The notes below the pieces were generated by a model. It saw only the letters and a list, made by a program, of their open reading frames with translations. It was not told where the DNA came from and searched no databases. From assembly GCA_963832225.1 (NCBI GenBank), contig CAWHTI010000002.1, positions 298 to 64,297 on the forward strand: a DNA stretch of 64,000 bases, in the 5' to 3' direction. This DNA comes from an uncultured Actinomycetes bacterium (GTDB lineage: Bacteria; Actinomycetota; UBA4738; HRBIN12). Positions 1-22,562 of the stretch are shown here, one piece after another (the stretch's first letter is position 1; each line of letters begins with the position of its first letter). The position numbers and the translations under genes were made by a program.

Positions 1-1093
1 GTCGCCTTCACCGGCGCCCGGTCCGGTGGGGTCTCCTACCGGTGGGAGTTCGGCGACGGCGCCACGTCGACCGAGGCGAACCCGCGGCACACCTACGCCC
101 GCGCCGGCACCTACACCGCGAAGCTGACCGTCACGTACGCCGACGGCGAGACGGCGACGACGCAGACGACCGTCACCGTCGGCTGCGCGGTGCCGGACAG
201 CCGGGCCACGGTGTGGCTGGGCGACGCCGACACCGGTGTGGCCAACCGCCCGGCCGGCGGCGGCTGCACGATCAACGACCTGATCGACGACGAGAGCGCG
301 TGGGCCGACCACGACGGCTTCGTCCGCCACGTCACCGCGGTCGCCGACGGCTGCGGCCGACGGCGTCCTCACGGCACGGGAGACCGGGGCGCTGACCCGC
401 GCGGCCGCGGCGTCCGACATCGGCCGGCCGGGCCACACCGGATACCAGCCGATCTTCGACGGCACCGCCGAGTCGTTGCGGGGCTGGCAGCAGGCGCCGT
501 CGGGCTCGTTCGCGCTCCAGCCGGACGGCTCGCTGCGGACCATCGGCGGGCTGGGCATGCTGTGGTACACCGACAGCCGTTCGGTGACTTCTCGCTGAAG
601 CTGCAGTTCCGCGACGTGGCACCGGGCACCGGCCGCTCCAACAGCGGGGTGTTCACCCGGTTCCCGGATCCGCGCATCCCGCTGGAGCAGCGCCCGCCGG
701 GTAGCTGCGGCACGCTCGGCCCGGCCCGGACCTCGCCGGCGTGGGTCGCGATCTACTGTGGACACGAGATCCAGATCTACGACGGCGAGACCGGCGAGCC
801 GCAGAAGACCGGATCGATCTACAACTTCGACCCGTTGCCGCTGCCCGGCGCCCGGCGCGACGCCGAAGGGCCAGTGGAACGACTACGAGATCCGCGTCGT
901 CGGGCAGCACTACACGATCATCCGCAACGGCGTGGTGATCAACGAGTTCGACAACACGCCCGGCAAGCAGTCCTCGCGCCCCAGCGACCCGCCGACCGAC
1001 CTGCGGCAGTTCGCCAGCGGCTTCATCGGCCTGCAGAACCACGGCGACAACGACCTGATCGAGTTCCGCAACATCCGGGTGCGAGCGCTGTGA
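1..1093 (+). pseudogene. Secreted PKD-domain / DUF1080 (3-keto-disaccharide hydrolase-like) protein; 5' end lies outside the window; frameshifted as sequenced
   Basis: Frame 1 from nt 1 reads a PKD-like module (YRWEFGDGATSTEANPRHTYARAGTYTAKLTVTYADGE). ORF 758..1093 ends GQWNDYEIRVVGQHYTIIRNGVVINEF..GFIGLQNHGDNDLIEFRNIRVRAL*, a DUF1080 signature. Homology hops frames near ~350, ~570 and ~860. Confidence 0.7.
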
Positions 1094-1156
1094 CGGGTCG
1101 GTCGCTCGTTCGACCGACCGGCCTCGACTCGTCCGTGCTCGCTCGGACGCCGCTGC

Positions 1157-1560
1157 ATGGCGTCCCGGCTGTGGCGTCGCTGCTCCGCGGCGTCCGGCTG
1201 CGCTCCGCGGCGCGCCGCGGCGCAGGTGCTGACCTGGACCGCGGACGACGACATCACCCGGTACAGGTCCGCGCCGACGCAGGCCGTGGCCGGTGCGACG
1301 ACGATCGTCTTCGAGAACAGCGCGGCGACCGGGAACACCACCGGCATGCCGCACACGCTGACCTTCGACACCACCACCGAGGGCTACAACCACGACGTCA
1401 ACCTGAACATCCTGGCCAGCCCGTTCGACCCGAACAACGGGCGGCACGAGGTGACGGTGACCCTCACGCCGGGCCGGTACCGCTACTTCTGCGCGATTCC
1501 CGGCCACGCGCGATGGTCGGCGAGTTCGTGGTCACCGGGGGCGGGCGGAGCTGTGGGCAC
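1157..1560 (+). pseudogene. Cupredoxin (azurin/plastocyanin-like) domain protein; boundaries uncertain
   Basis: ORF 1157..1609 contains TIVFENSAATGNTTGMPHTLTFD..GRYRYFCAIPGHA and continues as MVGEFVV in another frame, an azurin-type Cys..His..Met copper-ligand pattern. There is a frame hop near ~1508 and the stop is unclear. Confidence 0.45.
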
Positions 1561-1568
1561 CGCGAGCG

Positions 1569-2990
1569 TCAGGGCAGGGTACCGGCCAGGCGGAGCAGCA
1601 GGGCCTTGACGTCGGTGGCGGCGAACCGGTCGGCCCCGAGGCGGCCGAGCAGAGCGGCACCGGTGAGCTCGGCCGCCGGGCGTCGGCCGCCGGGCGGGCA
1701 GCCGGCCGTGCGAGCCGCGGACCGCGCGCGGCGCCGGCGTCGAGGCCGACCACGTTCATCAGGTAGCGCATGCCGAGCTTCTTGCGCAGCCAGCGCCATG
1801 CGCGGCCCGGCGCCTTGGCCGCGCCCGGGCCGGCCGGGTCGAAGAACAGCTCGGCCGGGTCGTAGCCGGGCTTGCGGTGGATCTCGACGCAGGCGGGCGA
1901 AGTCGGGCGCGCGGCGCGTCGTCGAGCCAGTAGTAGTAGGTGAACCAGGCGTCCGGCTCGGCGACCAGCACCAGCTCGCCGGCGCGCTCGTGGTCCAGGC
2001 CGTGCGCGGCCTTGCCCGGCGTCGTCGAGCACCTCGGCCACGCCGGGCAGCTCGGCGCAGAGCTTCGCCACCGCCGGCGACGTCGGCCGGGTCGCGCGAC
2101 GTAGACGTGGGCGACCTGGTGGTCGGCGACGGCGAACGCCCGCGACGTCCACGGGTCCAGGTACTCCATGCCGTCCTGGGTGTACACGCTGCAGCAGCCC
2201 CTCGGCGCGCAGCAGCCCGGTTGACGTCGCACCGGCCGGCGACACGTCGGTGATGCCGTACTCGGACAGCGCCACGACGGTCGCGCCCCGGGCCGCGGCG
2301 GCGTCGAGCAGCGGGCCGAGCACCGCGTCCAGCTCGGCGGCGGCCGCGGCGGCCTGCGGCGCGGACGGGCCGAACCGCTGCAGGTCGTAGTCGAGGTGCG
2401 GGACGTAGACCAGGGTCAGGTCCGGGTCGTGGTCGGCCATGACCTGCTCGGCGCGCGCCGGCAGATCCAGCGCCGACGAGGCGATGCCCGGCGCCCGGGC
2501 CCCAGTAGCTGAACAGCGGGAACGTGCCGAGCGTCGCGGTGAGCTCGTCGTGCAGCTCCGGCGGGTACGGTGTAGCAGTCGGGCTCCTTGCGGCCGTCGG
2601 CGTGGTAGATCGGCCGCGGGCGTGACGGTCCAGTTCGACGTCGGCGCCCATCGCGTACCACCAGCAGACGTTGGCCACCGTGTAGCCGGGCCGGTCGCCG
2701 GCGGGCCGCGTGCCACAGCTTCTCGCCGCCGACCAGCGCGTTGTGCTGCCGCCACAGCAGCACCTCGCCGAGGTCGCGGAAGTACCAGCCGTTGCCGACG
2801 ATGCCGTGCCCGGCCGGCGGCGCGCCGGTGAGGAAGCGTCGACTGCACCGAGCAGGTGACCGCGGGCAGCACGGTGCCGAGCGGGGCCGGTGAAGCCGCC
2901 GTCGGCGACGGCCCGCAGCCGGGGCATGTGCGCCAGCAGCCGCGGGGTCAGCCCGACGACGTCGAGCACGACCAGCGGGCTTGGCGTCAC
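1569..2990 (-). pseudogene. eboF: EboF-like alkaline-phosphatase-superfamily nucleotide pyrophosphatase/phosphodiesterase, heavily frameshifted
   Basis: It starts MTPSPLVVLDVVGLTPRLLAHMPRL (GTG at 2990). Pieces GIVGNGWYFRDLGEVLLWRQHNAL, FSYWGPGAG, DPDLTLVYVPHLDYDLQRFGP, ALSEYGI and EIHRKPGYDPAELF are spread over all three minus frames. It lies directly after eboE. Confidence 0.7.
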
Positions 2991-4147
2991 TGCGCGTCAC
3001 GGCTCGCAGGCCGAGGTCGGTGCAGCTCGGTCGCGGGCGAAGGCCAGCTCGGCGGCGATGCCGGCGGCGAGCCCGGCCGGCGTCGTCCGGGCGCAGCGCC
3101 GCCGGCAGCACGCCCCAGGTGTAGGTCTCGACCTCGAGGTGGTCGCAGCGCGGCGGGCCCGCCGAGCAGCGCGGCCAGGGCGTCGCGCAGCACGGCGGTG
3201 GTCGTGCGCAGCGGCGGCACCGGCGGCGGCGTGCAGCGGCACGTGGAAGTGCACCCGCCACGGGCCGGGCGCGCCGGCGGCCAGCGCCTCGTCCAGGTCG
3301 TCGAAGGCGGCGCCGCCGCGCGGCCGCGGGTCTGGTGCAGGAAGCGCGGCTCGACGTACTCGCGCGAGCACCGTCGCGCGGCCGCGACCGGGTCGTCGAC
3401 CTCCAGCGCGGCCGACACCTGGACCTTGACGACCGGCAGGCCGGCGCCGCGCAGCCGGGCGACGGCCGTCGGCCGGGTCCTCCCAGGCGCAGGCCAGGTG
3501 CGCCAGGTCCAGGCAGACGCCGAGCCGGTCGGTGTCCACGCCGGACAGATGCGCGACCGCCTGCGTCGGTGGTCTCGACGACGCAGCCCGGCTCCGGCTC
3601 GAACGCGACCCGGACCGCCGGCCGGTCCAGCCGCGGCGGCCAGCCCGGCGGCGAGCTCGTCGAGCAGCGCGCGCGCGGCGGCGCCGGCCGCTCGGCGTCC
3701 CACGGCTCGCGCCAGGCCAGCGGCAGCGTGGAGATCGAGCCGCGGGCGGCGTCGTCGGGCAGCAGGTCGGCCAGCACCGGCGCCAGGTCCAGGGTGTACG
3801 CCAGCCGTGCGCGGGTCGGTCCAGTCCGGCTGGTAGACGGCGTGCTTGACCACCGGCTCCTGGAAGGCCTGGTACGGGAACCCGTTGAGGGTGACCACCT
3901 CCAGCCCGCGGGCGTCCAGCTCGCGGCGCAGCCGCCGCCGCAGCGCCGCGGTCGGCGGCCAGCCCGGCGGCGACCGGCGCGGCCAGCCACAGGCCCGAGG
4001 CCGAGCACGTCGGCGCCGAGCCGCTCGCGGACCGGCACCGCGTACGTGTCGAGCTGGCGAGCGATGCCGGCGAGGTCCTCGGCGGGGTGCACGTTGGTGC
4101 AGTAGGCGAGGTGCACGCGTCTGGCCGTCGGGGTGCCGCAGCCGCAT
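2987..4147 (-). pseudogene. eboE: EboE-type xylose-isomerase-like TIM-barrel protein, frameshifted
   Basis: Pieces are MRLRHPDGQT then VHLAYCTNVHPAEDL..VVTLNGFPYQAFQEPVVKHAVYQPDWT..VAFEPEPGCVVET..LGVCLDLAHLACAWEDP..VVKVQVSAALEV..EPRFLHQTR. The ATG at 4147-4145 overlaps the TatD stop (TGATG). There are at least 4 frame hops, and the 3' end is uncertain within 2987-2997. Confidence 0.75.
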
Positions 4148-4994
4148 CACGTGCCGCCGCGCAGGATCGAGTTGCCCGCGAAGGTCGGCCGTCGCCGGCC
4201 GCCGTGCGCTCGTCGGACAGGTCGAGCCGGCCCGGACTGGCCGTAGAACTCGACCGGGTTGCGCCACAGCACCCGGTCGACGTCGTCGTCGGCTGAACCC
4301 GGCCGCGAGCATCGCCTCGCCGGTGCGCCGGGTCAGCAGCGGGTCGGAGCTGGCCCCAGTCGGCGGCCGAGTTGACCAGCATCCGCTCCAGGCCGTACTC
4401 CGCGCAGGATCGCGACCATCCGCGGCGGCGACATCTTGGTGTCCGGGTAGATGGAGAAGCCCATCCAGCAGCCGGAGTCCGCGACCAGCGCCGACGGTCA
4501 CCTCGTTGAGGTGGTCGAGCAGCGACCCGGCCCGGGTCGATGCCGGACTCCTTGACCACGTCGAGGCGTGCGCCGGGTGCCGGCGGCCTTGTCCCGGTGC
4601 GGGGTGTGCACCAGCGCGGGCAGCTCGTGCGTCGACCGCCAGCGCCAGCTGGGCGGCGAACGACCTCGTCCTCGGCCGGCGTCATCGAGTCGTAGCCGAT
4701 CTCGCCGACCGCGACCACGCCGTCCTTGTCCAGGTAGCGCGGCAGCAGGTCGAGCACCTCGCGGCAGCGCGGGTCGTTGGCCTCCTTGGGGTTGAGCGCG
4801 ATCGTGGCAGTGGTGCCGGATGCCGAACTGCGCCGGCCCGGAACGGCTCCCAGCCGATCAGCGAGTCGAAGTAGTCGGCGAACGAGCCCGGCGTTGGTGC
4901 GCGGCTGGCCCAGCCAGAACGCCGGCTCCACCAGGGCCCGCACCCCGGCGGCGGCCATCCGCTCGTAGTCGTCGGTGGTGCGCGAGGTCATGTG
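4147..4994 (-). pseudogene. eboB: TatD-family hydrolase (EboB-like), 5'-truncated at the mosaic junction and frameshifted
   Basis: Pieces are HMTSRTTDDYERMAAAGVRALVEPAFWLGQPRT..IALNPKEANDPRCREVLDLLPRYLDKDGVVAVGEIGYDSMTPAEDEV..LDVVKESGIDPGRV..ERMLVNSAADWG..TFAGNSILRGGT*. Homology ends at ~4994, so the extreme N-terminus (first His of the HxH motif) is missing. Confidence 0.7.
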
Positions 4995-5138
4995 CTCCAT
5001 CATCGCCGCGAGTCCATCGAGCGAATTTCTGAACCATAAACGACACTAGAATGATGATTTTGCTAGTGTCCTTATCGAAGCCGAAGTTCGCTCTGAAGAT
5101 GCTGCGAAGTAAGGTGAACTTCGGCTTCGGGACACTAG
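4995..5138. repeat. Nested-palindrome intergenic repeat, left copy, truncated at the junction; inverted relative to 15848-16014
   Basis: 5063-5138 (ctagtgtcc..ggacactag) is a 76-nt hairpin, preceded by a 13-nt AT-rich spacer and the distal arm of a second hairpin (..gcgaatttctgaaccataaacgacactag). It aligns with the reverse complement of 15848-16014 but lacks about the first 27 nt. Confidence 0.85.
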
Positions 5139-5198
5139 CCTCGCGCATCAACAACGAGGTGCCCGTGTCCACGGGCCATAACATTCAGGGAGCGGCCG

Positions 5199-6248
5199 AT
5201 GGTTGCCTCAAGCGTCGTGGTGCCGAAGAGCGGCCTTTATGCCGAGCCGCGCGCAGACTGGCTTGCGTCGTACAGTGAGGAGGTCATCGATCCCGCGCGC
5301 CGCATCATCGACGCGCATCATCACCTCTGGGACCGCCAGGGCGGCCGCTACCTGCTGGAGGAGCTGACGGACGATATCGCCAGCGGCCACAACATCGTCG
5401 CCACCGTCTATGTCGATTGCCGCTCGATGTATCGCGCGAACGGACCCGAGGCGTTCAAGCCGGTCGGTGAGGTCGAGTTCGCCAACGGCGTTGCGGCGCA
5501 GAGCGCGAGCGGCGGCTACGGCAAATGCGCGGTCAACGCGGCGATCGTCAGCCACGTCAACCTGCAGCTTGGCGACGACGCAAAGCCGGTGCTGGAGGCG
5601 CAGATCAAGGCGGGCAATGGCCGCTATCGCGGCATCCGCCACTCATCGGCCTGGGACGCGAGATCCGGCCGTGGCCGGCGCCTATGCGGCGCGGCCGAAG
5701 GGGCTGCTTGCCGATCCGCAGTTCCGAAAGGGTTTTGCCTGTCTCGGTCCGCTCGGGCTGACGTTCGACGCCTGGCTGTTTCATCCGCAGATTCCGGAGC
5801 TCGCCGATATTGCCCGCGCGTTTCCGAACCAGCGCATCGTCATGGACCATTGCGGCGGCCCGGCAGGGCTTGGCGTCTACGCGGACGTCGCGACGAGATC
5901 TTCAAGACCTGGAAGGCCTCGGTCGAGGACATCGCCAAATGTCCGAACGTCGTCGTCAAGCTCGGCGGGCTGGCGATGATGCTGCTGGGCTATGATTTCC
6001 ACACGCGGCCGAAGCCGGTGTCGTCGGAAGAGCTGGCGAAGGCATGGAAGCCTTACATGGAGACCTGCATCGCCGCGTTCGGCCCGAACCGCTGCATGTT
6101 CGAGAGCAACTTTCCGCCGGACAAGGGCCAGTGCAGCTATCAGGTGATCTGGAATGCGCTGAAGCGCATTGCTGCGCCCTATAGCGAGGCCGAGAAGAAC
6201 CGCATGTTTGAAGGGACGGCCGCGGAGGTCTACAAGATCAGCCTTTAG
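5199..6248 (+). pseudogene. Amidohydrolase-2 family metal-dependent hydrolase, two frame hops
   Basis: Pieces are IIDAHHHLWDRQGGRYLLEEL..NIVATVYVDC..RYRGIRHSSAWD, then (other frame) PAVAGAYAARPKGLLADPQFRKGFACLGPLGLTFDAWLFHPQIPELADIARAFPNQRIVMDHCGGP, then back to FKTWKASVEDIAKCPNVVVKLGG..CMFESNFPPDKG. Confidence 0.8.
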
Positions 6249-6285
6249 CGGATGCGCATCCAACCGGCTGAGCGGAGGACGAGTC

Positions 6286-6690
6286 ATGGCAGACAAGACA
6301 CCACTGGCGCCGGCGCTCGTCAACGAGTTCGTCGGCAAGGCGCATGGCGATCTCGACCGCGTGCGTGAGCTGCTCGGGCAGCATCCCGCGCTCGTCAACG
6401 CGGCCTGGGACTGGGGCGACGGCGACTGGGAGACCGGGCTTGGCGCGGCCGCTCATGTCGGGCCGGCGCGACATCGCGCTCCATCTCATCGAGAACGGCG
6501 CGCGCATGGACATCTTCGCCGCCGCGATGCTCGGCCATCTCGAGATCGTCCGCGCCATGATCGAGGCGGTTCCGGCAGCGCGCGGCAGTGGCGCGGCCCG
6601 CACGGCATTCCGCTCCTGACACATGCGGAGGCGGGCGGACCTGCGGCTGCGGCCGTCGTGGATTATCTGCGCGCCAAAGCCGGCGCCTGA
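6286..6690 (+). pseudogene. Ankyrin-repeat protein, two frame hops
   Basis: Pieces are MADKTPLAPALVNEFVGKAHGDLDRVRELLGQHPALVNA..TGLGAAAHVG, then RRDIALHLIENGARMDIFAAAMLGHLEIVRAMIE in another frame, then PHGIPLLTHAEAGG..VVDYLRAKAGA*. Confidence 0.6.
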
Positions 6691-7526
6691 TGGGGATGAC
6701 GATGAACGTTTTGACCAACGCGGTCACCAAAGAATATGCCGACGGCAAGTTGCTGCAGTCGATCGGCGACGGCATCGGCGATCCTGACCTTCAACAATCC
6801 GGAAAGGCTCAACGCGATCTCGGTGGAGATCGCCGCGGGGCTTGCCGAAGCGCTGACGGCGATGAAGGACGATCCCGCCGTGCGCGTGCTGATTCTGACG
6901 GGCGCGGGCGAAAAGGCCTTCATCTCGGGCGGCGACATCAGCCAGTTCGACAAGACCCGGCCGAATGCGGAGGTCGCGGCAAAATCGGCGGAAAAATTTC
7001 GCGAGCGGCAGGCGCTGCTCGCCAATTTTCCAAAGCCGACGATCTCGGCGATCCGCGGCTATTGCCTCGGCGGCGGCCTGGGCGTCGCGCTCAACACGGA
7101 TATGCGCATTGCCGCGCACGGCAGCAGGTTCGGCATTCCGGCCGCGCGGCTCGGCATCGCCTATGGTTTCGACGGCCTGCAGCGGCTGATGTCGCTGGTC
7201 GGCCCGTCGCGGGCGCGGCTGATCCTCTTCACCGGCAACGCGTTTTAGTGCCGAGGAGGCGCTGAGCTTCGGCCTGATCGACAAGCTCGTGGCGCCGGAG
7301 GAGCTCTGGCCCGAAACGCTGGCGATCGCAAGGCAGATTTCCGAGAACGCGCCGCTGGCGATTTCGGCGGCGAAGATCACGATCGGCGAAATCCTGAAGG
7401 ATCACGACAGGCGCAACATGCAGGCGATCGCCGACATCGCGACGACAGTGCATGGACAGCGAGGATTTTCGCGAAGGCCGGCGCGCATTCATGGAAAAGC
7501 GCACGCCGAAATTCGTCGGCCGCTAG
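6690..7526 (+). pseudogene. Enoyl-CoA hydratase/isomerase (crotonase) family, at least 3 frame hops
   Basis: Pieces are ILTFNNPERLNAISVEIAAGLAEAL..VRVLILTGAGEKAFISGGDISQF..AIRGYCLGGGLGVALNTDMRIAA..FGIPAARLGI, then AEEALSFGLIDKLV..APLAISAAK, then SEDFREGRRAFMEKRTPKFVGR* in successive frames. Confidence 0.8.
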
Positions 7527-7549
7527 TCATCCTGAACGGATCAACAGCA

Positions 7550-9900
7550 ATGCAGGACATCAAGTACGGCCGCGTGGTGCACCGGCGCGAGGATTTTCGC
7601 CTGACGCAGGGCAGGGGCATTTATGCGGCCGACGTGTCGCTCGACGGCATGACCCATGCGGTGTTCGTGCGCTCGCCGCATGCGCATGCGCGGATCAAGG
7701 CGATCGATACCGCGGCGGCCCGCAAGGCGGCCGACGTGGTGGCAGTGTTTACCGCGGCCGACCTCGACGCCGATGGCGTGCGCGATTGCAGCCTGCCGGC
7801 CAAAATGAAGCGGCCGGGCGGCGACCGAGGCGACCGAGACGCCGCGCCCGCCGCTGGTGCGCGACTGCGTGCGTTTCCTCGGCGAGCCGGTGGCGATGGT
7901 GGTCGCGAAATCGCTCAGCGCCGCGCGCGACGCCGCCGAACTGGTGGATGTGCGACTACGAGCCGCTGCCGGCGGTCGCGACGATTGCCGAGGCCACCGC
8001 AAAAGGCGCGACCGCGGTGTGGGATGCGACGGCCAGACAACGTCGCCTATCACTGGAGCAAGGGCGACGCGGCGGAGATCGAGCAGGCGCTGCAGGCCTC
8101 GCATCACGTCGTCCGCCTGACTTTCACGTCGAGCCGCGTCTCGGCGAACCCGATGGAGCCGCGCAGCGCCGTCGGCCCACGTGGACAAGGACGGCCGGCC
8201 GACGCTGCATGTCAGCTACCAGAGCCCGCACAATCTGCGCGATGCGCTGGCCACCATGTTCGGCATGGAGAAGAACGCGCTGCGGGTGGTCGCGACCGAC
8301 GTCGGCGGCTCGTTCGGCATGAAGTCCGGCCTGGTGCGCGAAGAGTTGATCGTGTTCTGGGCCGCGCGGAAGCTGAAGCGGCCGGTGAAGTGGGTCGCGG
8401 ACCGCTCGGAAGCCTTCCTGTCCGACGAGCATGCGCGCGACATCGAGATCAACGCGGCGCTCGGCCTCGACAAGCGCGGGCATTTCACCGCGCTGCGCGT
8501 CAGCTACCGCGTCAACATCGGCGCATACCTTTCGGCGCGCTCCGCTTCGCCGATCAACAATTTCGGCGGCATCGCCGGCGTCTATCGCACGCCGAAAATC
8601 CTCGGCGAGGCCACCGGCATCTTCACGAACACCTCGCCGACGGCGCCTTATCGCGGCGCCGGCCGGCCCGATGCGACCTACGCCATCGAGCGGCTGATCG
8701 ATGTCGCGGCGCAGGAGATGGACATCGATCCGTTCGAGCTGCGCAAGCGCAACCTGATCCCGCCCGACGGCGATGCCCTACAAGACGCCGTTCGTCTTCA
8801 CCTATGACTGCGGCGATTTCGTCAAGGGCATGGAGAAGGCCGCCGAGCTCGCGCGCTACAAGGAGTTTGCCGGCGCGACGCAAGGAGGCGAAGAAGCGCG
8901 GCAAGCTGCGCGGCATCGGCATCGCCAACCCGATCGAGGTCGCGTCCGGCCCGTTCGCGCGGCCGAGCACCGATTTCGCCTGGATCGAGGCGAAGGCCGA
9001 CGGCAGCGTCCGTGCTGCGCGCCGGCGCCATGTCGGTCGGGCAGGGGCTGGAGACGTCGCTCTCCGACATCGTCGCCCAGCGGCTCAACGTGCCGATCGA
9101 GAAGATCGACTACGTCTATGGCGACACCGACCAGGTGCCGCGCGGCAAGGGCAATGGCGGCTCGGCGGCGCTGACGCTGGGCGGCTCGGCGATCTCGCTC
9201 GGCGTCGACAAGCTGCTGGAGCAGGGCAAGCAGCTCGCCGCCAACCGGCTCGAGGCGTCGCGTCGCCGACATCGAGTTCGCCGAAGGCCGATTTCGCATC
9301 GCCGGCACCGACCGCTCGCTGTCGCTGGCCGACGTCGCGGCGCTGACCGGCAACGACGAGGGCCTGACCGGCGTCGGCGAGTTCAAGATGTCCCAGCCGA
9401 CCTATCCGAACGGCTGCCACATCTGCGAGGTGGAGATCGATCCGGACACCGGCGTGGTCGAGGTGATCGGCTACGTCGGCGTCGAGGATGTCGGCCGCGT
9501 GCTGCATCCGGCGTTCGTCGAGGGCCAGATCCACGGCGGCGTCGCCCAGGGCATGGGCCAGGTGCTGCAGGAAGCGATCGTGCACGAAGCCGGCACGGCG
9601 CAGCTGCTGACCGGCTCGTTCATGGATTACGCGATGCCGCGCGCGAACGACCTGCCGAACTTCGTCTGCGCCAATGTCGAGGTGCCGACGGCGCTCAATC
9701 CGCTCGGCGTGAAGGGCGTCGGCGAGGCCGGCACGGTGGGCGCGATGGCCGCGACCATGAACGCGATCTGCAACGCGCTGGCCAGCGTCGGCATCCGCCA
9801 TTTCGACATGCCGGCGACGCCGGAGCGGGTGTGGCAGGCGATCCAGCGAACGCCGTGCCGCCGAATAGACGGCAGCAGCCCGGTCGGCTTAACCAGCTGA
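7550..9900 (+). pseudogene. Xanthine dehydrogenase/aldehyde oxidase-family molybdopterin-binding large subunit (CoxL-like), many frame hops
   Basis: Pieces are MQDIKYGRVVHRREDFRLTQGRGIYAADVSLDGMTHAVFVRSPHAHARIKAID..RVSANPMEPRSAVG..ATDVGGSFGMKSG..YRGAGRPDATYAIERLID..GAMSVGQGLETS..GKGNGGSAAL..EVEIDPDTGVVEV..GQIHGGVAQGMGQVL..NPLGVKGVGEAGTVGA. These are scattered over all three plus frames. Confidence 0.85.
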
Positions 9901-10055
9901 ATTGTTGCGATAAAATTGACAGCGCCGGCCTCTTGCGGTTTTTCCCGGTCTTGAGGACAATGCGTCCGGCGGCCCGGCTGATTTGGGCCGGGGGGCCGCC
10001 ATCGGACGATGGCGTGGTATCTCTCAAGTCGTTCTTGTTCAGGCTGGACCTTTCG

Positions 10056-11808
10056 ATGCAGTGCCCGCGATGTCAGGCCAAAAGTCCTGAGGGCAAGAAA
10101 TTTTGCGGCGATTGCGGCGCGCCGCTGGCGGTGCTGCCGGCGCAGGCCGGTGGAGATTCCGGCCGACATCGCCGGCGCCCGCGATGCGGTGCTGCGTGCG
10201 GTCGCCGAGCAGCGCCAGGCCGAGCAGGACTATCGCAAGATCTTCGAAGGCTCGGTCGACGGCATCTACGTCACCACGCCCGAGGGCGGGTGCTCAACGC
10301 CAATCCGGCGCTCGCGCGCATGATGGGCTACGACTCGCCGCAGCAATTGATCGACGGCGTCTCCGACATCTGCGCACTCGATCTACGTCGATGCCGCCGC
10401 GCGCGAGGAGTATCTGCTGCGCATGCAGCGCGACGGCATGGTGCGCGAGTACGAGTACCAGGTGCGCCAGCGCGACGGCAACATCCTGTGGCTGTCCGAC
10501 AGCGCCACCGCGGTGCGCGACGAGAACGGCCGCGTGGTGCGTCATGAAGGTACGGTGCGCGACATCACCGATCAGCGCCGCGCCGAGCAGGCGCTTGGCC
10601 GAAAGCCGCCGCCAGCTGCAGACCGTGATCGACACCGTGCCGGCGGTGATCAACGTCAAGGACACGAAGTTCCGCTACCTGTTGATGAACAAGTACATGG
10701 CGCGCATCTTCGACGTCGATCCCGAGGAGGCGGTGGGGCGCACCACCAACGAGATCATGGCGCGCTATGGCGCCTCGAAGGAAACCTCGGGCGACCAGCA
10801 GGTGCTCGCCACCGGCGAGGAGCTCGGCTTCTACGAGGAGGCCTATTTCGATTCCGCGCACCGCCTGCGGCACTGGATGGCCAACAAGGTGCCGGTGAAG
10901 AACGCCGAGGGCAAGATCGAGTACATCGTCACCGTCGCGCTCGACATCACCGACCGCAAGCGCAGCGAGCAGGAGACGCAGCGGGCGCGCGATTCCGCCG
11001 AGAACGCGCTGAAGAACCTGCGCGCGACCCAGAATTCGCTGATCGAGTCCGAGAAGCTCGCGGCGCTCGGCCGGCTGGTCGCCGGCGTCGCGCATGAGAT
11101 CAACAATCCGGTCGGCATCGGCGTGACGGTCGCGACCGCCCTGCAGCGGCGCTGCAGGCTGTTTGCGGAAGAGGTCGCGCGCGGCGAGCTGAAGCGCTCG
11201 ACGCCTCAACGCGTTCATCCAGGCGAACATCGATGCCGCAAGCCAACTCGTGTCGAACCTCAACCGCGCCGCCGAGCTGATCCAGTCGTTCAAGCAGGTG
11301 GCGGTCGATCGCAACGTGCCGGACCGCCGCGCAGTTCAACCTCGCCGACATCACCGAGCAGATCGTCACCAGCCTGCGGCCCGGCCTGCGCTCGCGCAAC
11401 CTGACGCTGACGGTCGATTGCGCGCCGGACCTCGACATGAACAGCTATCCCGGTCCGTACGGCCAGGTGGTCACCAACCTGTTCCTGAACTCGGTCGCGC
11501 ACGCGTTTCCGACCAATGCGGCGGGCGAGCTCATCATCACCGCGCGCGAAGCCGGCGCTGATCATGTGGAGATCGTCTATTCCGACAACGGCGTCGGCAT
11601 GACCGACGAGGTGAGGCGGCACGCGTTCGATCCGTTCTTCACCACGCGCCGCGACAAGGGCGGCACGGGCCTCGGCCTCAACATCGTGCACAACATCATC
11701 ATCAACCGTCTCGGTGGACGCATCGATCTCGCTTCGGAGGTCGGCAAGGGAACGCGATTCCACATCGTGCTGCCGCGCGTCGCACCGCTGGAGCGCGCAG
11801 CGGAATAG
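10056..11808 (+). pseudogene. Cytoplasmic sensor histidine kinase: N-terminal zinc ribbon, two PAS domains, HisKA, HATPase_c; frameshifted
   Basis: Pieces are [24 protein letters not shown]; PAS-like [20 protein letters not shown] and [16 protein letters not shown]; H-box [16 protein letters not shown]; ATPase part YGQVVTNLFLNSVAHAF..DNGVGM..FDPFFTTR..GTGLGLNIV. No transmembrane segment is seen. Confidence 0.8.
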
Positions 11809-12115
11809 ATCGTCGCCATTTTCTGCTTCTGAACAGCTCCAATTTCCATCGGTTCATGCGGGGCCGCGAAATGCGACGCAATGCACCTGTTTCAAGCGCT
11901 GCCTGCAACACATTGCGGCATCCGACTTGGTGACATAAATCACGGTGTTTACATTTGCCGTCGATAGATTATCTAGCGCCTGAAACAGGCTAATCCGTTG
12001 AACTTTCACAGCGTCGCGAACGACAAATGCGTGCATGAATTCCGAACTGACTACCGCGCATCGTGGCCCGCAAGGCAAATCTTCTCCTGACGATCATCCT
12101 GACAAAACGAAACGC

Positions 12116-12891
12116 ATGAGCGCCTTCAACAAAGAGCAAGTTCTTTCCGTGCGTCACTGGACGGACTCGCTGTTCTCCTTCACCACCACCCGCGATCCGG
12201 GGTTCCGGTTCCTCAATGGCCAGTTCACCATGATGGGCCTCGAGGTCAACGGCCGGCCGCTGCTGCGCGCCTATTCGCTGGCGAGCGCCAATCACGAGGA
12301 GCAGCTGGAATTCTTCTCGATCAAGGTTGCCGAACGGTCCGCTGACCTCGCTGCTGCAGAAGATCAAGGAAGGCGACACCATCCTGGTCGGCCGCAAGGC
12401 CACCGGCACGCTGATCACCGACAACCTGCTCGCCGGCTCGCGGCTGCTGCTGCTGTCGACCGGCACCGGGCTCGCGCCGTTCGCGAGCCTGATCAAGGAT
12501 CCGGACGTGTACGAGCGCTTCGAGAAGATCGTGCTGGTGCACGGCTGCCGTCAGGTCTCCGAGCTCGCCTATGGCGAACGGCTCGTCGCCAAGTCTCTCG
12601 GACGACGAGTACTTCGGCCCGGTGCTGAAGGAGAAGCTCGTCTACTATCCGACCGTCACCCGCGAGCCGTTCCGCAATCGCGGCCGCATCACCGACCTGA
12701 TCACCACCGACCGGTTGTTCGCCGACACGGATCTGCCGTCGCTCAACCTCGAGACCGACCGCATCATGATGTGCGGCAGCCCGAGCATGCTGGAAGACCT
12801 GCGCGTGCTTCTCGAGGAGCGCGGCTTCAGCGAGGGCAATCACAGCCACCCCGGTCACTTCGTGATCGAGAAGGCCTTCGTCGAGCGCTGA
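12116..12891 (+). pseudogene. fpr: Ferredoxin-NADP+ reductase (Fpr type), two frame hops
   Basis: Pieces are MSAFNKEQVLSVRHWTDSLFSFTTTRDPGFRFLNGQFTMMGLEVNGRPLLRAYSLAS..LEFFSIKV / NGPLTSLLQKIKEGDTILVG..LLLLSTGTGLAPFASLIKDP / YYPTVTREPF..RIMMCGSPSMLEDL..HFVIEKAFVER*. Confidence 0.85.
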
Positions 12892-12904
12892 GCTTCGACG
12901 CAAA

Positions 12905-12945
12905 GAAAAACTCCCGCGCAGCGATGCGCGGGAGTTTTCTTTTGT
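12905..12945. terminator. Bidirectional rho-independent terminator between convergent fpr and the binding-protein gene
   Basis: The sequence aaaaactcccgcgc-agcgat-gcgcgggagttttctttt has a 9-bp GC stem flanked by an A-tract and a T-tract. Confidence 0.8.
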
Positions 12946-12957
12946 CGGTATCCAGAT

Positions 12958-14105
12958 CTACTTCACCAGGACGTACTTGCCATCCTTGACCGTGAGCAGG
13001 ATGCGCGCACGCTCGTCGACGCCAAAACGGTCCTTCTCCGTAAAATTGTAGACGCCCTGGCTCGCGGCGATCTCCTTCTCCGAATTGAGCGCCGTGCGTA
13101 GCGCCTCGCGGAATCGGCCGTGCCGGGCTTGCCGCTCTTCAGCGCGATCGGCACGACGCGCTTCATCACCTCGAACGCATCGTACATGTGCGCGCCGAAC
13201 TGGTTGCGCGAGTTCTCGCCGTACTTCTTCTCGTACAGCGCATTCAGCTCCAGTCCGGGCTTCTTGGTCAGCGCCTTGTCGTCCTGGCCTTCCGGCGCCA
13301 TCACCGGGCCGGACGCCATGATCACGCCTTCGGCGGCCTTGCCGGCGATGCGGATGAAGTCGTAGGTCGCAGCCCCATGCGTCTGGTAGATCAGACCGGC
13401 GTAGCCGCGCTCGCGCAGCGCGGCCTGCGGCAGCGCTGCGCCTGTGCCCGATGCGCCGATCAGGATCGCGTCGGGTTTTGCCGCCACGAGCTTCAGCACC
13501 TGGCCCGTCACCGACGTGTCAGGCCGCGCATAACGTTCCTCGGCGACCACCGTCATGTTCATTGGCCCGGTCTGGGTTTTCAGGTCGTTCAGCCAGAGGT
13601 CGCCGTACGAATCCGAAAAGCCGATGTAGCCGATCGTCTTCACGTTGTTCTTCTTCATGTGCTCGTACAGCGCCTTGCCGACGATCGGCACGGGCTGCGG
13701 CATCACCACTGTCCATTTTTCACGGGCCGGCGTGAACGGCATCGGCGCAAGCGCGAAGTGCGGCACCGCCGCCTCGTTGGCGACGGTCGAGACGGCGATC
13801 GTCGGCGGCGTGGTCGAGGAGCCGACCAGGATGTCGGCCCTGGATTCGGTCAGGAGGCGTCGCGCATTGGTGGTGGCTGTGGTCGGATCGCCGGCGTCGT
13901 CCAGCAGCACGGTCTTGATCTTCACCCCGCCGATCTCGGCCGGCACGAACTCGACGACGTTGCGCTCGGGGATGCCAAGTGCGGCGGCGGGTCCGGTGGT
14001 GGAGATGGTGATGCCGACGACGAGCTCCTGCGCGGCTGCCGGTGCAGAAAGCGCGGTCAGCCCGAGCAGCGCCGCTACGAGCGGTCCCGACAATCTGGAC
14101 GTCAT
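12958..14105 (-). pseudogene. LivJ-type (branched-chain amino acid family) ABC substrate-binding protein, one frame hop near ~13120
   Basis: Signal peptide MTSRLSGPLVAALLGLTALSAPAAAQE is followed by LVVGITISTTGPAAALGIPERN..LLDDAGDPTTATTNARRL..ILVGSSTTPPT..KTIGYIGFSDSYG. The C-terminus FREALRTALNSEKEIAASQGVYNFTEKDRFGVDERARILLTVKDGKYVLVK* is in another frame. Confidence 0.8.
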
Positions 14106-14187
14106 TGATCGTTTCCTCTTTTGGTCATGCTTGTTGTACCCAAGCCTGTCTAGCGGGGGCATAATCGGTGTCAATCGGCGGTTGGTC

Positions 14188-15710
14188 TCAGGCGAACGCC
14201 GACCAGTCCACCGGGCCGCGCACGTAGCCATAGCGCAGGTTGCTGCGCGCCGGGCCGTTGCGCTCGTACTCGTCCTTCATCAGCGCAAAGCGGTCGCGGT
14301 TCGGGCCGATGTCGGTGCGCTTGCTCATGTCGTAGTTGTAGAGCTTCGCGTTGGTGCCGCCAAAGATCATGTTCTTGATCGGGCCGTCGGCCGCGCCGAT
14401 CGGCTTGAAGCCGTACTTCTTCTGCATGTCGTCCGGAATCTCCAGCCGGCGCAGCGCCTCGATCTGCCACTGCGGCGAGCCGGTCCACACCGCGTCCGTG
14501 CCCCACACCACGCGCTCATAGCCGAGGCCCTTGCCGAGGATGCCCATCATGGCAGCGCCGAGCAGCGGCTCCGCGACGACGCTCTGGGCGAACAGCTGGC
14601 CGACGTCGGCGTAGACATTGGTGACGCCGAACTTGTCGGGGATCTCGGCAAGGTCGCTGACCCAGGAGACGCGTCCGGTCTGCTCGAACTCCTTCCAGCC
14701 GGCGTCGGCGCGGCCGCCGCCGGCATGGCGATAGCCGCCGTGATAGATGATGAAGTTCAGCTGCGGCCAGTCTTTCGCCGCCTTGCCGACGTCGCTGACG
14801 TCGGCGTAGGCGAGCAGATGCGGCCAGCGTTTTGCGGTCGCCTCCGGGAACAGGCCCTTGTGCACGCAGATGTTCTTGATGCCGTATTTCACGGCGAGCT
14901 CATAGCCCTTGTAGGTGATCTTCTCGTCGTCCATCCGCCAGGGATGTTTGGCGTGGTCCTTGTTGGTGTTGTCGCCGACGGTATAGCCCTTGATCAATTC
15001 CGGCTTGCGCGCGAGCGAGCCTTCCAGGTGCTCGAGCCAGCCGTCCCAGCCGGGCGTGAAGATCGCGTGCGCGAACATGCGGCGGCTGCCCGCTTCCTTG
15101 TTCACCTTGTCGCGCGCCTCGATCATCATCTCGTTGGTGAGGAACCAGTCGCGCGGGATCTCAGACGGCGACGACGAGATCAGCGCGATCTTGGTGTCGC
15201 TGTCGAGGTAGATTTCCTTGAAGTAGTTGTTGAACTTCAGATCATCGAGCGTCTGCGGCTTGTCGACCAGCGCCGGATTCCAGCCGCCTTGCCGACTGCC
15301 TCGCGCGAGCGCACGAAATTCACCAGCCGCGTGTCGTCGCGCAGGAAATGCGTGTGCATGTCCATGATGAACTGGTCTTTCAGCGCATTGGCGCGCTCCT
15401 GCGCCATCGCGGGCGTCGCCGCTTCGGCGCGGCTCGCGTCGAACACCGTGCCGAACGTGTCGTTCAGCGCGACAAAGCCCGCCGCCATGCCGGCCGCGGT
15501 CTGGAAGAACTGGCGGCGGCTGAGGCCCTGTTGCTGCCGAGCTCGTCGGCCATGGAGAGCAGCCGCGCCTCGACCTCCTTCTGCTTCTCGCTCTGCGGGG
15601 GCGGGCGTGTATTCGTCGCTGGAGACGATCTGGGTCGGGATCGGCGTTGCATGCGGCAGCAATTCCGACGGATTGAGCTCTTTGATCTCTTGTTCGGTCA
15701 GGAAACCCAT
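14188..15710 (-). pseudogene. Tat-signal amidohydrolase-family (Amidohydro_2-like) protein, frameshifted
   Basis: It starts MGFLTEQEIKELNPSE with a GGAGG RBS. It has the Tat motif SRRQFFQTAAGMAAGFVAL, then DQFIMDMHTHFLRDD and a long intact C-terminal part (ORF 14188..15129: KGYTVGDNTNKD..NICVHKGLFP..FIIYHGGYRH..VVWGTDAVW). Confidence 0.75.
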
Positions 15711-15847
15711 ATCAGCCTCCTCATGCCTGCCGTTCCGGCGTTGGGCCAAGACTAGCAGATTTCGCCTCGGCGAGGCAGGGCAACGGTGTTGCGGCGCGCG
15801 GAACAAGCCGCGTGCGTTGAAAGGCGGATTGTGGTCGAATGGCGCAG

Positions 15848-16014
15848 CTAGTGTCCCGAATCCGAAGTTCGCCATACTTTGCAGCGCGCTCAGAGCGAAC
15901 TTCGGATTCGATAAGGACACTAGCAAATTATAATTCTAGTGTCGTTTATGGATCAGAAATTCGCACGATGAACTCGCGGAAACGATGGTGCGAATTTCTG
16001 ATCCACGACACTAG
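15848..16014. repeat. Nested-palindrome intergenic repeat, full copy (two ~76-79-nt hairpins bounded by CTAGTGTC/GACACTAG)
   Basis: Hairpin A is 15848-15923, a spacer caaattataatt follows, and hairpin B is 15936-16014. Its reverse complement matches 4995-5138. It lies between the divergent amidohydrolase (start 15710) and the VOC gene (start 16041). Confidence 0.85.
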
Positions 16015-16040
16015 TGCAGAATTACGACGAGGAATGAGAC

Positions 16041-16775
16041 ATGGCTTTTTCGCTCGATCACGTGGTCATCGCCGTCTCCGAGCTCGAACAGACAATCGCT
16101 GACTATCGCGCGCTCGGCTTCACGGTCTATCCGGGCGGCGTGCACCACGGCGGCGTTTCGCACAATGCGCTGGTGATCTTCGCCGACGGCTCATATTTCG
16201 AGCTGATTGCGTATCGGCAGGCCGCGCCCGACGTGCGCTGGTGGCAGGTGCTGTCGAAGGCGGGTGAAGGGTTTGTCGATTTCGCCCTGCTGCCCCAGAA
16301 TGCCGCGCGCGATGCCGACAATGCCCGCGGACGTGGCCTCGACCTGGTCGGACCGACCGCCGGCGGCCGGGTGCGGCTCGACGGCGCGCGGCTCGACTGG
16401 CAGACCGTGCGGCCGACAACCACCGATCTGCCGTTCTGGTGCGGCGACGTCACCCCGCGCAACTTGCGGGTTCCGGAAGGCGACATGCGGACGCATGCAA
16501 ACGGCGTGACGGGCGTCGCCTCGCTGAAGGTTGCGGTCGCCGACGTCGCAAGGAGCGCCGATCGCTACGCAGCGCTGGCCGGCGCAGGTGCCGTCAGCCG
16601 GGCCAACGGCGGCGTGCGCGTGACGCTCGGTTCCACCACATTTGAGCTCGTGGCCGATGCCGCGCATGTCGCAAAGCGCGGCGAGGGGCCGATGTCGCTC
16701 GTGCTGCGCGGGCCCGCCGCAAAGGCGCTGGACACGAAGCTTGCGCACGGCGCGGTGCTGTCGATTGCGCCTTAG
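16041..16775 (+). CDS. VOC/glyoxalase-like domain protein
   Basis: Intact 244-aa ORF: MAFSLDHVVIAVSELEQTIADYRALGFTVYPGGVHHGGVSHNALVIFADGSYFELIAY.., a glyoxalase-like fold pattern. Confidence 0.6.
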   Translation: MAFSLDHVVIAVSELEQTIADYRALGFTVYPGGVHHGGVSHNALVIFADGSYFELIAYRQAAPDVRWWQVLSKAGEGFVDFALLPQNAARDADNARGRGLDLVGPTAGGRVRLDGARLDWQTVRPTTTDLPFWCGDVTPRNLRVPEGDMRTHANGVTGVASLKVAVADVARSADRYAALAGAGAVSRANGGVRVTLGSTTFELVADAAHVAKRGEGPMSLVLRGPAAKALDTKLAHGAVLSIAP

Positions 16776-17972
16776 ATCATGAAGCTCACCACGCGAGCTC
16801 GAGGATCTCCATCACCTGGGCCGTCGGTCGTCACCGGCTTCGGGTTGGTCTTCATCGGCGGGTCGCGCAGCGATTTCGCGGCGATGTCGTCGAGCTGCTC
16901 GCGCTTGATGCCGACGTCGCGCAGCCGCGTCGGCACGCCGAGCTTTGTCGCAAAGGCAAGGATTGCGTCGGCGAGCTTGTCGCCGGCAACGCCGATCACG
17001 TCGCCCGCATGGGCCTGTCGCGCGGCGTTCGCATCGTAGTTCCAGCGCAGCACCGAGGGCAGGCAGACGCCGGTGGTGTGGCCGTGCGGCACGCCGTAGC
17101 CGCCGATCACGTGACCGATGGCATGGCTGGCGCCGACCGGCACGCCGCTGGTGCCGCCGAAGATCGACAGCCACATGCCGAACTGGCAGTCCATCCGGAG
17201 TTTCAGATGTCGTTGGCCCGCCGAGCTGCGGCAGCGAGGTGTAGAGCAGTTTCAGCGCCGACACCGAGGCGGCATCCGCGAGCGGCGGCGCTTCAACGCG
17301 CAAAGCCGTTCCACGGCGTGGTCGACCGCCTTCATGCCGGTCGCGAGCAGGAGCGGGAGCGGCGAAGCCAGCGTCGCGGCCGGATCGAGCACCACCACCT
17401 GCGGCACGAACAGCGGGTTCGCGAACGATTCCTTCACCAGCCGCGCGGGTCGGTGACGCCGGCATACCAGGTGAATTCGGCGGCGGAAAACATCGTCGGC
17501 ACCGCCAGCATGCGGATGCGGTCCCGGCATCGTCCGGATAGTGGCTCGGGTCGCCCTGCCGTCCGCCGCGATAGGGGTCCATCTCGCTTCGCGTCCGTTC
17601 AGCCCGTGCCACAGGCACAGCAGCATCGCCTTGGTCGCGTCGACCACCGAGCCGCCGCCGACCGCGACCAGCAGATCGGCTTTGGCCTCGCGCGCCGCTG
17701 GCGGCGCCCTCGATCACGCAACTGCGCGGGGTGTGCGCGGTGATGCCGGAATAGAGGCCGACGAATTTGTCGCCGAGCGCCCGGCCGATTTCGCGCGGCA
17801 GCGCGTTGTCGCCGGCAAGCGAGCCGCTGGTGGTGATGAAGATGCGCGACTTGCCGAGCTTTTGCGCCTCCTCGACGATCACCTCGGCCGCCGGCCGGCC
17901 GTGCACGACGCGCTCCTGCAGGAAATTGCGCTGGATGCCGGGTGTCAGCGATTGTGCCGGTTTGTCGAGCAT
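16772..17972 (-). pseudogene. Iron-containing alcohol dehydrogenase family (maleylacetate reductase-like), frameshifted
   Basis: Pieces are MLDKPAQSLTPGIQRNFLQERVVHGRPAAEVIVEEAQKLGKSRIFITTSGS..; VDATKAMLL..VVVLDPAATLASP..TGMKAVDHAVE; and C-terminal HAIGHVIGGYGVPHGHTTGVCLPSVLRWN. These lie in three minus frames. Confidence 0.7.
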
Positions 17973-18056
17973 GACCTGTTCTCTTTCATCGGTTGCCGGC
18001 GATGATGCAGCAAAGCCTGCAAGCGCGCCAGTTTGGCCGGGCAGGGGAGCCAAACG

Positions 18057-18083
18057 AAAACGCCCGGCCTGCGCCGGGCGTTT
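18057..18083 (-). terminator. Rho-independent terminator after the DppA-type binding-protein gene
   Basis: The sequence aaaacgcccggc-ctgc-gccgggcgttt has an 8-bp GC stem. On the minus strand it is followed by a T-tract. Confidence 0.75.
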
Positions 18084-18107
18084 CCAATTGTTCGAGCGGA
18101 AGGCCGC

Positions 18108-19809
18108 TCAGTAACCCATCTTCTTCTTCAGGTCCTGGTCGATCCAGAGGCGGGAATAGATCGGCCACGGGCGCACGGCGCCTGCGGTGTGCTCGCCATT
18201 GTAATTCTTCACCCACGGCCACCACGCGGTGAACGCCTTTGCCGTCGGCATCCAGATGTGCGGCGCCTTGTCGAGGATCTCGCGCGTCAGCTCGCGGATG
18301 GCGGCCTTGCGCTTGTCCTCGTCCGGCTCCTGCTGCATCGCCCGCACCTTCTTGTCGAACTCCGGATCGTTGTACATCGACGGATTCCAGAGCTGTCCGC
18401 CGACAAAATTCTTGAAGATGGCGAGCTGCGGATTGCTGTGGCCGATGTTCATGAAGTAGCCGGCCGCGTGCGTCTTGGTGCTCATCGCCGAGAGGAACGC
18501 CGCGTATTCCAGCGGCTGGATCTCGATCTTGACGCCGACCTGCTCAAGGTAGGCGGCGACCAGCGGCAGCAGGTCCAGATGCTGACGAGTTGGCGGGCGC
18601 GACCTGCACCTTGAAGGTGAAGCCGTTCGGATAGCCTGCCTCGGCCAGCAGCTTCTTGGCCTTCGCCGGGTCGTACGTGAACAGCTCCTTCACCGAGGCC
18701 GGCATGGCGCTCAACGGCTCATAGTAGCCCTCGTAGGCCGGATGCATCGGATAGGCGAGCAGCTCGGCGTTGCCGTTGTAGAAGGCCTTGATGATCTCTT
18801 CCTTGTTCACCGCCATGTTGAGCGCGCGGCGGACGCGGACGTCGTCGAACGGCTTCTGGTCGTTACGGAGCACCATCATGGTGCCGTAGAAGCTGACGCG
18901 CGGCAGCCACTTGATCTGAGGGTTCGTCTTCAGCTGGTCCATGTCCTGCCAGCTGAGCGTCTCCAGGATATCGATCTTGCCGGTGCGGAAGGCGGTGACG
19001 CGCGTGGAGTCGTCGCGGATGATGCGATAGACCACCTTGTCGACGAACGGCAGCTTGAACTCGGCTTCGCCGATCTTCTCCTTGTCCCAGTAGTCTGGCC
19101 GCTTCGTGTAGGTATGCGAGTTGCCGGGCACGTATTCGGTGAGCGCGAACGGGCCGGTGCCGGTCGCGTTCTTCCAGTCGGCTGCGCCGGCCGTCGCCAC
19201 TTCCTTCGGCATGATCGACGAGTTGTAGCCGTAGCCGATCCAGAACGGCCAGTCGGAGACGAAGTCCTTCATGTAGTAGACGACGGTGTACTTGTCGCGC
19301 GCCTCGACCTTCGTGATCTCGGTGAGGATGCCGGGCGGCCGCTTCGGGCTCTCGGCGCGATAAGTGTAGTTCCAGACGACGTCATCGGCGGTGAGCTCGC
19401 GCGCCTCCATCACGCCGGCCTTGGCCGGAAACATGATGCCCTTCTTCAGCCTGATGACGACCGCCAGCGGATCCTTCTGCACTTCCCAGCTTTCGGCGAG
19501 CTCGCCCTTGATCGCATCGGTCGGGATCCAGGCGTCGGCATGGAAGGCGTATTTGCCGCCATTGCGCGTGCCCTTGGAGAGGTCGGCGGTCAGCAGCATC
19601 TCATACATGCCGCCGGCGTCATGATTGATCTTCCAGGGCCAGTCCTTGTGGTCCCAGCTCAGCGCCGACAGGGTCGCGAAGATCGTGGCGACCTCCAGCG
19701 TCCCGCCATATTGCGGTTTCTCGGCGTTCTGGGCGAATGCATTCCCCGAGAGCAGCAAGGCTGCGCCGAATGCGCCGGCCTTCAACCAGCGATCCATTTT
19801 GAGCGACAT
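18108..19809 (-). pseudogene. ABC substrate-binding protein, family 5 (peptide/nickel, DppA-like), frame hop near ~18540-18600
   Basis: Signal peptide MSLKMDRWLKAGAFGAALLLSGNAFAQN is followed by PQYGGTLEVATIF..WDHKDWPWK..FVDKVVYRIIRDDSTRVTAFRTGKIDI. The C-terminal 125 aa are in ORF 18108..18485. The RBS is acGGAGGa. Confidence 0.8.
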
Positions 19810-20055
19810 GGAAATCCTCCGTAGCGTGATGCGGGGCGGCCGCTCTTGATCGGCGGCATCATCGGGTGCGAAGTCTAGGCCGATGCGTTGCATCGCGGAA
19901 GACCTCGCATGGGGTTCGATCGACCATTTTCAACGTCGCGAGGCAGGTGCGACAAAACGGAAGCTCAAGTCCGTTCCGCGGTGCGAAAGGCATCTTGCGA
20001 AGCAAGGGCCGTCATTGCATCCTTCACACCTCGCAGCAGCCAAGAAGGAACAGCG

Positions 20056-21409: not shown

Positions 21410-21450
21410 TTCGCGTCCAATAAACGCGCAAAAATTGCAGGAGAAGAACA

Positions 21451-22458: not shown

Positions 22459-22467
22459 GCGATAGCC

Positions 22468-22560
22468 TGTAGCCCGGATGAAGCGAAGCGAAATCCGGGG
22501 CTGAGTCCCGCGATCGATCGCTGATCAGCCCGGATTGCGCTGCGCTTCATCCGGGCTACA
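22468..22560. repeat. REP-like 32-nt inverted repeat (Bradyrhizobiaceae-type palindrome) between convergent genes
   Basis: Arm tgtagcccggatgaagcgaagcgaaatccggg (22468-22499) pairs with arm cccggattgcgctgcgcttcatccgggctaca (22529-22560). There are 2 mismatches and a 29-nt loop. One frame reads the familiar PDCAALHPGY pseudo-peptide. Confidence 0.8.
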
Positions 22561-22562
22561 AA

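Follow-up and report, generated by a model that had tools for sequence, protein, structure and literature searches.

Near the left end of the 64,000-nt stretch of DNA analysed here (referred to as the window), a gene of the TatD family and a repeated element both break off at 4994/4995. This raises the question of whether the two sequences met within a genome or were brought together while the sequence was being produced. An earlier note on this DNA had read this position as having the look of a non-biological join, and the present results support it: the breakpoints, the native continuations of both sides, the composition, the density of insertion errors and a second junction (25079/25080) agree. 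Relatives of the two sides continue differently past exact breakpoints, at which taxon, composition and error rate switch. Judging from these comparisons, we consider it very probable that 4994/4995 is a non-biological junction, and that it lies in a low-quality, taxonomically mixed assembly.

The sequence to the left of the junction is a remnant of a TatD/EboB gene (4147-4994, minus strand), delimited by protein alignment, locus alignment and tblastn. Searches with the protein reconstructed from the window returned thousands of homologues. The best are 85-90% identical to it and 282-283 aa long, and nearly all of those with names come from Micromonosporaceae; all close ones share the start MRIFDPHIHMTSR. 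Ten close homologues, 84-87% identical to the reconstructed protein and 282-283 aa long where full length, were aligned, and all 10 begin with MRIFDPHIHMTSRTTDDY, where the window has AAMME/HMTSRTTDDY (the slash marks the break), and the tblastn match in the window begins at residue 9. The remnant thus lacks its initial 8 codons (MRIFDPHI) and with them the first His of the HxH metal-binding motif (DPHIHM in the close homologues), and the second His alone is left, as the earlier note had stated. That note had named close TatD homologues starting with MTSRTT as evidence that would speak against it; none was found, and all of them start with MRIFDPHIHM. The rest of the remnant is readable only with several frame changes (three-frame translation, tblastn); it contains 16-18 indels per kb and no continuous frame of ~282 aa. 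Neither the TatD N-terminus nor any other remaining part of the gene was found elsewhere in the window, which argues against a simple insertion.

The neighbouring genes were compared with two native loci, L081 (GCA_054777835.1, with the TatD of Catellatospora paridis) and L082 (GCA_022095675.2, with the TatD of Dactylosporangium sp. AC04546). Positions 1561-4994 of the window (3.4 kb) align with both, 83-84% of the nucleotides being identical. Both alignments end at 4994, the equivalent of locus position 8025, 24 nt past the ATG at 8001; the TatD homology on the minus strand therefore does end at the His codon 4992-4994, as had been read from the sequence. According to their Pfam domains, the genes of L081 and L082 are arranged in the order inositol-phosphate-synthase-like, UbiA, AP_endonuc_2/EboA, TatD, AP_endonuc_2 and Phosphodiest, and in both loci the end of the EboA gene abuts the TatD start. 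We take this to be an ebo cluster (eboA-F), in which the TatD-family protein is EboB and its neighbours are EboA, EboE and EboF. In the window, the remnant is followed, in the same order, by (i) a frameshifted EboE-like gene encoding an AP_endonuc_2 TIM barrel (3006-4116, minus strand; tblastn matches in two frames), whose ORF begins with MHLAYCTNVHPAEDL at 4116, and (ii) an EboF-like phosphodiesterase (Phosphodiest phosphatase) gene with many frameshifts (1569-2990, minus strand), which is collinear with L081 and L082 and is matched by the L081 EboF translation as pieces in three frames (tblastn). The window differs from the native loci in being cut inside eboB, in lacking the upstream EboA, UbiA and inositol-phosphate-synthase-like genes (EboA gave no tblastn match in the whole window, so that EboE and EboF are present and EboA is absent), and in the ~21 frame-breaking indels per kb of the genes that remain. 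The left segment is an ordinary member of the ebo clusters, cut inside eboB.

To the right of the junction lies a block of 20,085 nt (4995-25079), whose L083 collinearity, G+C content, tetranucleotides and protein matches identify it as a piece of a Bradyrhizobium-like (Xanthobacteraceae) chromosome. Its first gene (5199-6248, plus strand), identified from ORF translations, the metagenome proteins P0121 and P0122 and the locus L083, encodes an Amidohydro_2 protein and contains compensating frameshifts. The amidohydrolase is 94-95% identical to P0121 and P0122, and its named relatives come from Bradyrhizobium and Xanthobacteraceae. L083, a Bradyrhizobium-like JGI contig of 682 kb (Ga0494693_000002) that encodes P0122, is collinear with positions 5135-16348 over 11.2 kb, at 92-95% nucleotide identity. 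The common gene order is amidohydrolase, a 133-aa gene, enoyl-CoA hydratase, molybdopterin dehydrogenase subunit, PAS histidine kinase, ferredoxin-reductase-like gene, periplasmic binding protein, second amidohydrolase and a Glyoxalase_3 gene. The remainder of the block (16348-25079) is assigned to it by composition and gene content alone, the collinearity of the relative ending at 16348. The genes of the block have metabolic or transport functions. Loci from GTDB that surround relatives of the amidohydrolase were also considered as comparators and were discarded, since they reach at most 73-76% identity and show neither synteny nor the repeat described below.

In L083 and in two further loci, L084 and L085, genes for CMD and TctC proteins lie upstream of the amidohydrolase gene, with ~200 nt of intergenic DNA between. 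The native left flank found in L083 (135 nt of intergenic DNA, followed by CMD and TctC) is missing from the window. In its place, the interval between the junction and the amidohydrolase gene carries a copy of a repeat, which is present in full at 15848-16014 (plus strand) and consists there of two hairpins with CTAG at the bounds of each. Positions 4994-5139 are 84-87% identical to the reverse complement of 15848-15991. This identity and the layout of the arms confirm the claim that from 4995 onwards the sequence is the reverse complement of the repeat, starting inside its second hairpin (hairpin B).

The copy at the junction is described here in the direction of the element itself, i.e. along the minus strand of the window. 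It comprises an intact hairpin A (5063-5138) with its outer CTAG at 5135-5138, a spacer (5050-5062) and an incomplete hairpin B (4994-5049). The latter retains its first arm (5019-5049) and loop (4998-5018). Of the second arm, 27 nt in full, only GAGC (4994-4997) is left, after which the TatD sequence follows. Hairpin B of this copy therefore cannot form, unlike that of full copies, in which both hairpins have complementary arms ending in CTAG. The amount of missing sequence had been put at about 27 nt; as GAGC is kept, it is actually ~23 nt. No base at the junction remains unassigned, and base 4994 is compatible with both TatD and the repeat. The view that two units are broken at the same nucleotide thus holds insofar as both are cut, but the coincidence is exact only to within 1 nt.

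The putative start of the gene model that crosses the junction also derives from the repeat. The sequence, its three-frame translation and the loop consensus (81 aligned copies) place the two ATG codons behind the MMEHM start at 4998-5003 (minus strand), and both come from GATGATG of the hairpin-B loop. The MMEHM start is therefore fortuitous, as previously proposed, and the 668-aa ORF that begins with it (2997-5003) is a frame-hopping artefact.

Since a truncated repeat could also be a natural variant, we characterised the family to which it belongs. The full copy at 15848-16014 is predicted to fold into two hairpins (-55 kcal/mol, z = -12.9), and a further full copy is located at 7035-7203 of L083, a related metagenome contig. 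The repeat is ~170 nt long and is built of two different hairpins of ~76-79 nt, with the conserved loop motif GATGRACTCGCGG. Compensatory changes in 26 of the 45 consensus stem pairs identify it as a genuine structured repeat family. JGI metagenome contigs were scanned for the cores of hairpin A and of the hairpin-B loop, whether or not the second arm followed, which yielded at least 120 stretches. The repeat is thus very abundant in soil and rhizosphere metagenome contigs. Among the 80 loci listed (L088-L167), the second arm of hairpin B is present in 76: in 71 copies it lies at the expected offset with at least 15 of 20 complementary bases, and in 5 more it has 12-14 of 20, with the terminal CTAG in place. 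The remaining four comprise three copies cut by contig ends and one (L108) broken 5 nt into the arm. A class of natural copies starting at the equivalent of 4995, the second finding that the earlier note had said would refute it, does not occur among the 80 copies listed.

The exceptional copy (L108, positions 720-860) is carried by a contig of 1.5 kb (OFHL01009890.1). Unrelated GC-rich sequence follows its break, and the contig looks mosaic, appearing to fuse the N-terminus of an oxidoreductase with an ExbB-like C-terminus. The short-read contigs L163, L166, L123 and L084 terminate in or at this hairpin. A role of hairpin B as a preferred assembly break point was considered, but it is not used as evidence here, as 2-3 contig ends among 80 short contigs are not clearly above chance; the hairpin may nevertheless be a weak spot in assembly, the counts being small.

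The repeat is absent from L083, L084 and L085 at the site it occupies in the window, and a bare CTAG is found there. It therefore constitutes an insertion polymorphism, of which one natural end is preserved at 5135-5138; the native DNA expected past its other end is absent from the window. At the position of L083 orthologous to 15848-16014 (20689-20720), only the last 31 nt of the element, i.e. the second arm of hairpin B, were found, which indicates that the element is naturally shortened by internal deletion, or gained and lost in modules. This partial copy differs from the one at the junction both in its locus and in the part of the element retained. As natural partial copies exist, a shortened repeat is by itself no proof of an artefact.

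In being short, intergenic and high-copy, in forming imperfect palindromes, in its presence or absence between close relatives and in its insertion at a short palindromic site (CTAG), the element resembles proteobacterial repeats of the REP/BIME, RIME (a proteobacterial intergenic repeat type) and MITE kinds. It differs from them in its two unlike hairpins, in its GATGRACTCGCGG loop and in being bounded by CTAG instead of carrying GTAG/CGTC tags. Bradyrhizobium carries several REP families (PMC3733652). Rfam contains no such family and gave only sub-threshold hairpin look-alikes on the repeat, and a search of a plasmid collection returned no match; these searches linked the repeat to no named REP or MITE family. 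In the window and the Bradyrhizobium-like loci searched, matches to the repeat profile were confined to the block and to L083 and L084.

The change at the junction is also evident in the composition of the DNA. The G+C content is 0.73-0.80 in positions 1-5000, 0.61-0.69 in 5001-25000 and 0.68-0.76 beyond. At a resolution of 100 nt it passes from 0.75 (4900-4999) to 0.46-0.60 (5000-5199) and then to 0.63-0.68. The tetranucleotide correlation changes at the left junction as well, and the tetranucleotide profile of the block is distinct. As expected of an artificial join, taxon and composition thus change at one base, and the native relatives of the two sides continue differently. The 36-mer spanning the junction had no match in the GTDB genome contigs and JGI metagenome contigs searched, and an exact look-up of two ORFs of the window found neither on record.

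The block ends as abruptly as it begins. At 25079/25080 a class-III aminotransferase gene (24174-25079, plus strand; Pfam Aminotran_3, model positions 16-288 of 403), whose translation breaks off at ..KVFQHGQT, and an ftsH gene (25080-26591, minus strand), identified by its homologues, its Pfam domains and the loci L086 and L087, are cut at the same base. FtsH homologues are 642-667 aa long. The truncated protein keeps residues 1-504 of ~665 and has lost 158-161 C-terminal residues and with them most of the M41 protease domain (Peptidase_M41 model positions 1-74 of 191 are covered). Its closest relatives (up to 98%) comprise metagenome proteins without a name and proteins of MAGs labelled 'Actinomycetota bacterium', and no Micromonosporaceae occur among the best 120. 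The gene is assigned to an uncultured lineage of Actinomycetota. In L086 and L087, ENA soil-metagenome contigs of uncultured Actinomycetota, homology to the window starts exactly at 25080. L087 is collinear with it to 38094 (94% over the first 8 kb) and L086 to 38746 (86%), with local breaks. Past ftsH, both contigs carry glycosyltransferase, cNMP-binding and peptidase genes, and neither matches positions 1-4994 of the window. The second junction consequently defines a block of 20,085 nt placed between two actinobacterial segments that are not neighbours in their relatives.

The right segment shows several further features. The only tRNA of the window at the Rfam gathering threshold is a tRNA-Arg(CCG) at 53844-53917. 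Three tandem copies of a 37-nt unit (GGGGGCTACCGCTTCGCTACTTGAG...) occupy 40402-40512, and a related fourth copy (53958-53994) adjoins this tRNA gene; the common unit suggests that the region 40-54 kb belongs to one actinobacterial genome. The tetranucleotide correlation of 46-58 kb is slightly higher with the left 5 kb than with 25-38.7 kb. Within 38746-64000, the genes argS, lysA and hom look heavily frameshifted. Further junctions may exist in this last interval.

The quality of the sequence is uneven, too. Frame-breaking indels relative to the corresponding genes of relatives, which are intact, number 21-22 per kb in 1561-4994, 6 per kb in 5135-12887, 2.4 per kb in 12958-15853 and 0.6 per kb in 25080-33083. 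Most of them are insertions of a single G or C in the window, and in 1561-16348 and 25080-38094 the majority of genes are interrupted by them. The density changes across the junction, as it would between artificially joined pieces differing in consensus quality, and this step would fit pieces of different sequencing depth, i.e. different organisms. Since the 1-nt insertions fall within runs of an identical base in ~30% of cases, below the 40-44% expected, an error of the homopolymer type was rejected; the pattern is presumably that of a poorly polished consensus of insertion-prone long reads.

A biological origin of the same structure would require a very recent transfer between phyla, in which a soil actinobacterium captured a 20-kb piece of a Bradyrhizobium-like chromosome by illegitimate recombination of the end-joining type. 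Illegitimate recombination is able to join unrelated DNA with 0-1 nt of microhomology, and both junctions, with an overlap of 0-1 nt and no site-specific signature, look as end joining would leave them; moreover, the closest relatives of all three parts come from soil or rhizosphere metagenomes. Such a capture would have destroyed tatD and ftsH and rearranged the locus or chromosome of the host, and the uneven error density would have to be merely an artefact of uneven polishing. We regard it as very unlikely. The block is unameliorated (G+C content of 0.61-0.69, against 0.70-0.80 in the flanks, and 92-95% identity to the Bradyrhizobium-like contig), the loss of 158-161 C-terminal residues leaves FtsH with little of its M41 protease domain, and the error density of the flanks differs more than 30-fold, with a step at the junction, which would not be expected had a single replicon been sequenced to a uniform depth. 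With its foreign composition and its position between host-like flanks, the 20-kb block is also reminiscent of a genomic island, but it has no integrase, tRNA target, direct repeats or mobility genes. Neither 4994/4995 nor 25079/25080 is accompanied by an integrase, a transposase, a tRNA or a target duplication, and the single tRNA of the window is distant (53844-53917). Genes are interrupted at both ends of the block, on its own side and on that of the flanks, the error density is uneven, and the two flanks are not contiguous in relatives, either past ftsH (L086, L087) or upstream of tatD (L081, L082).

Two readings that confine the event to a single genome are less probable still. The repeat occupies a CTAG site that is empty in L083, L084 and L085 and it is abundant in metagenomes, so it could be imagined as a MITE-like mobile element whose insertion into tatD, or a rearrangement that it mediated, produced the junction. 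This is barely credible, given that the junction falls at an internal point of the element instead of at its CTAG terminus, and that its intact end adjoins at least 11 kb of native Bradyrhizobium-like flank; the collinearity of 5135-16348 with L083 contradicts this reading, and against it stand also the change of taxon and composition past the junction and the restriction of profile matches to the block and L083/L084 among the window and Bradyrhizobium-like loci searched. Equally remote is a coincidence in which a TatD paralogue with a short N-terminus happens to lie beside a naturally short copy of the repeat in one real genome. Natural partial copies do occur, and an ORF finder does call an ORF starting with ATG at this place; yet MRIFDPHI is kept in 10 of 10 aligned homologues, the ATGs are part of the repeat loop, and among the copies listed a start at this point is seen only at contig ends or in the mosaic-looking contig. 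A coincidence would also leave the switch of phylum and the second junction unexplained.

The absence of mobility genes, of an attachment site or target duplication, of contiguous flanks and of uniform quality argues that the join is not biological. In the reading that we prefer, DNA of an actinobacterial ebo cluster, closest to Micromonosporaceae, would have been set end to end with the 20,085-nt piece of a Bradyrhizobium-like chromosome, and the other end of this piece, at 25079/25080, would have been attached to DNA of a second actinobacterial lineage, an uncultured one. We infer that the joins are technical and arose during production of the sequence. A library molecule may have been chimeric, a metagenome assembly that was error-prone and probably built from long reads may have contained a misjoin, contigs of a contaminated bin may have been strung together with no spacer between, or the splice may have been made deliberately in silico. 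The cut would then have left the shortened TatD gene, the incomplete repeat and the MMEHM start as by-products devoid of function. As in chimeric or contaminated metagenome assemblies, taxon, G+C content, oligonucleotide signature and consensus quality change at a single base and genes are cut on both sides, and this happens at two junctions in the window; the difference is that the join bears neither an N spacer nor the remnant of an adaptor.

The window thus combines DNA of at least two phyla and is burdened by many insertion errors, and the value of the result lies in quality control. Gene calls, operons and readings of gene transfer that extend across 4994/4995 or 25079/25080, including the 668-aa MMEHM ORF, would be false, and we advise that the assembly or bin from which the window comes be checked for chimerism and contamination before it is used further. 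The analysis did yield one real biological by-product, the double-hairpin repeat, which Bradyrhizobium-like genomes carry in high copy and with conserved structure. A second palindromic structure was observed in the block at 22463-22565, where an inverted repeat with 37-nt arms (89% complementary) contains GTAGCCCGGATGAAGCG. It resembles the GTAG-tagged REP pairs described from Bradyrhizobium (PMC3733652), in agreement with the origin assigned to the block.
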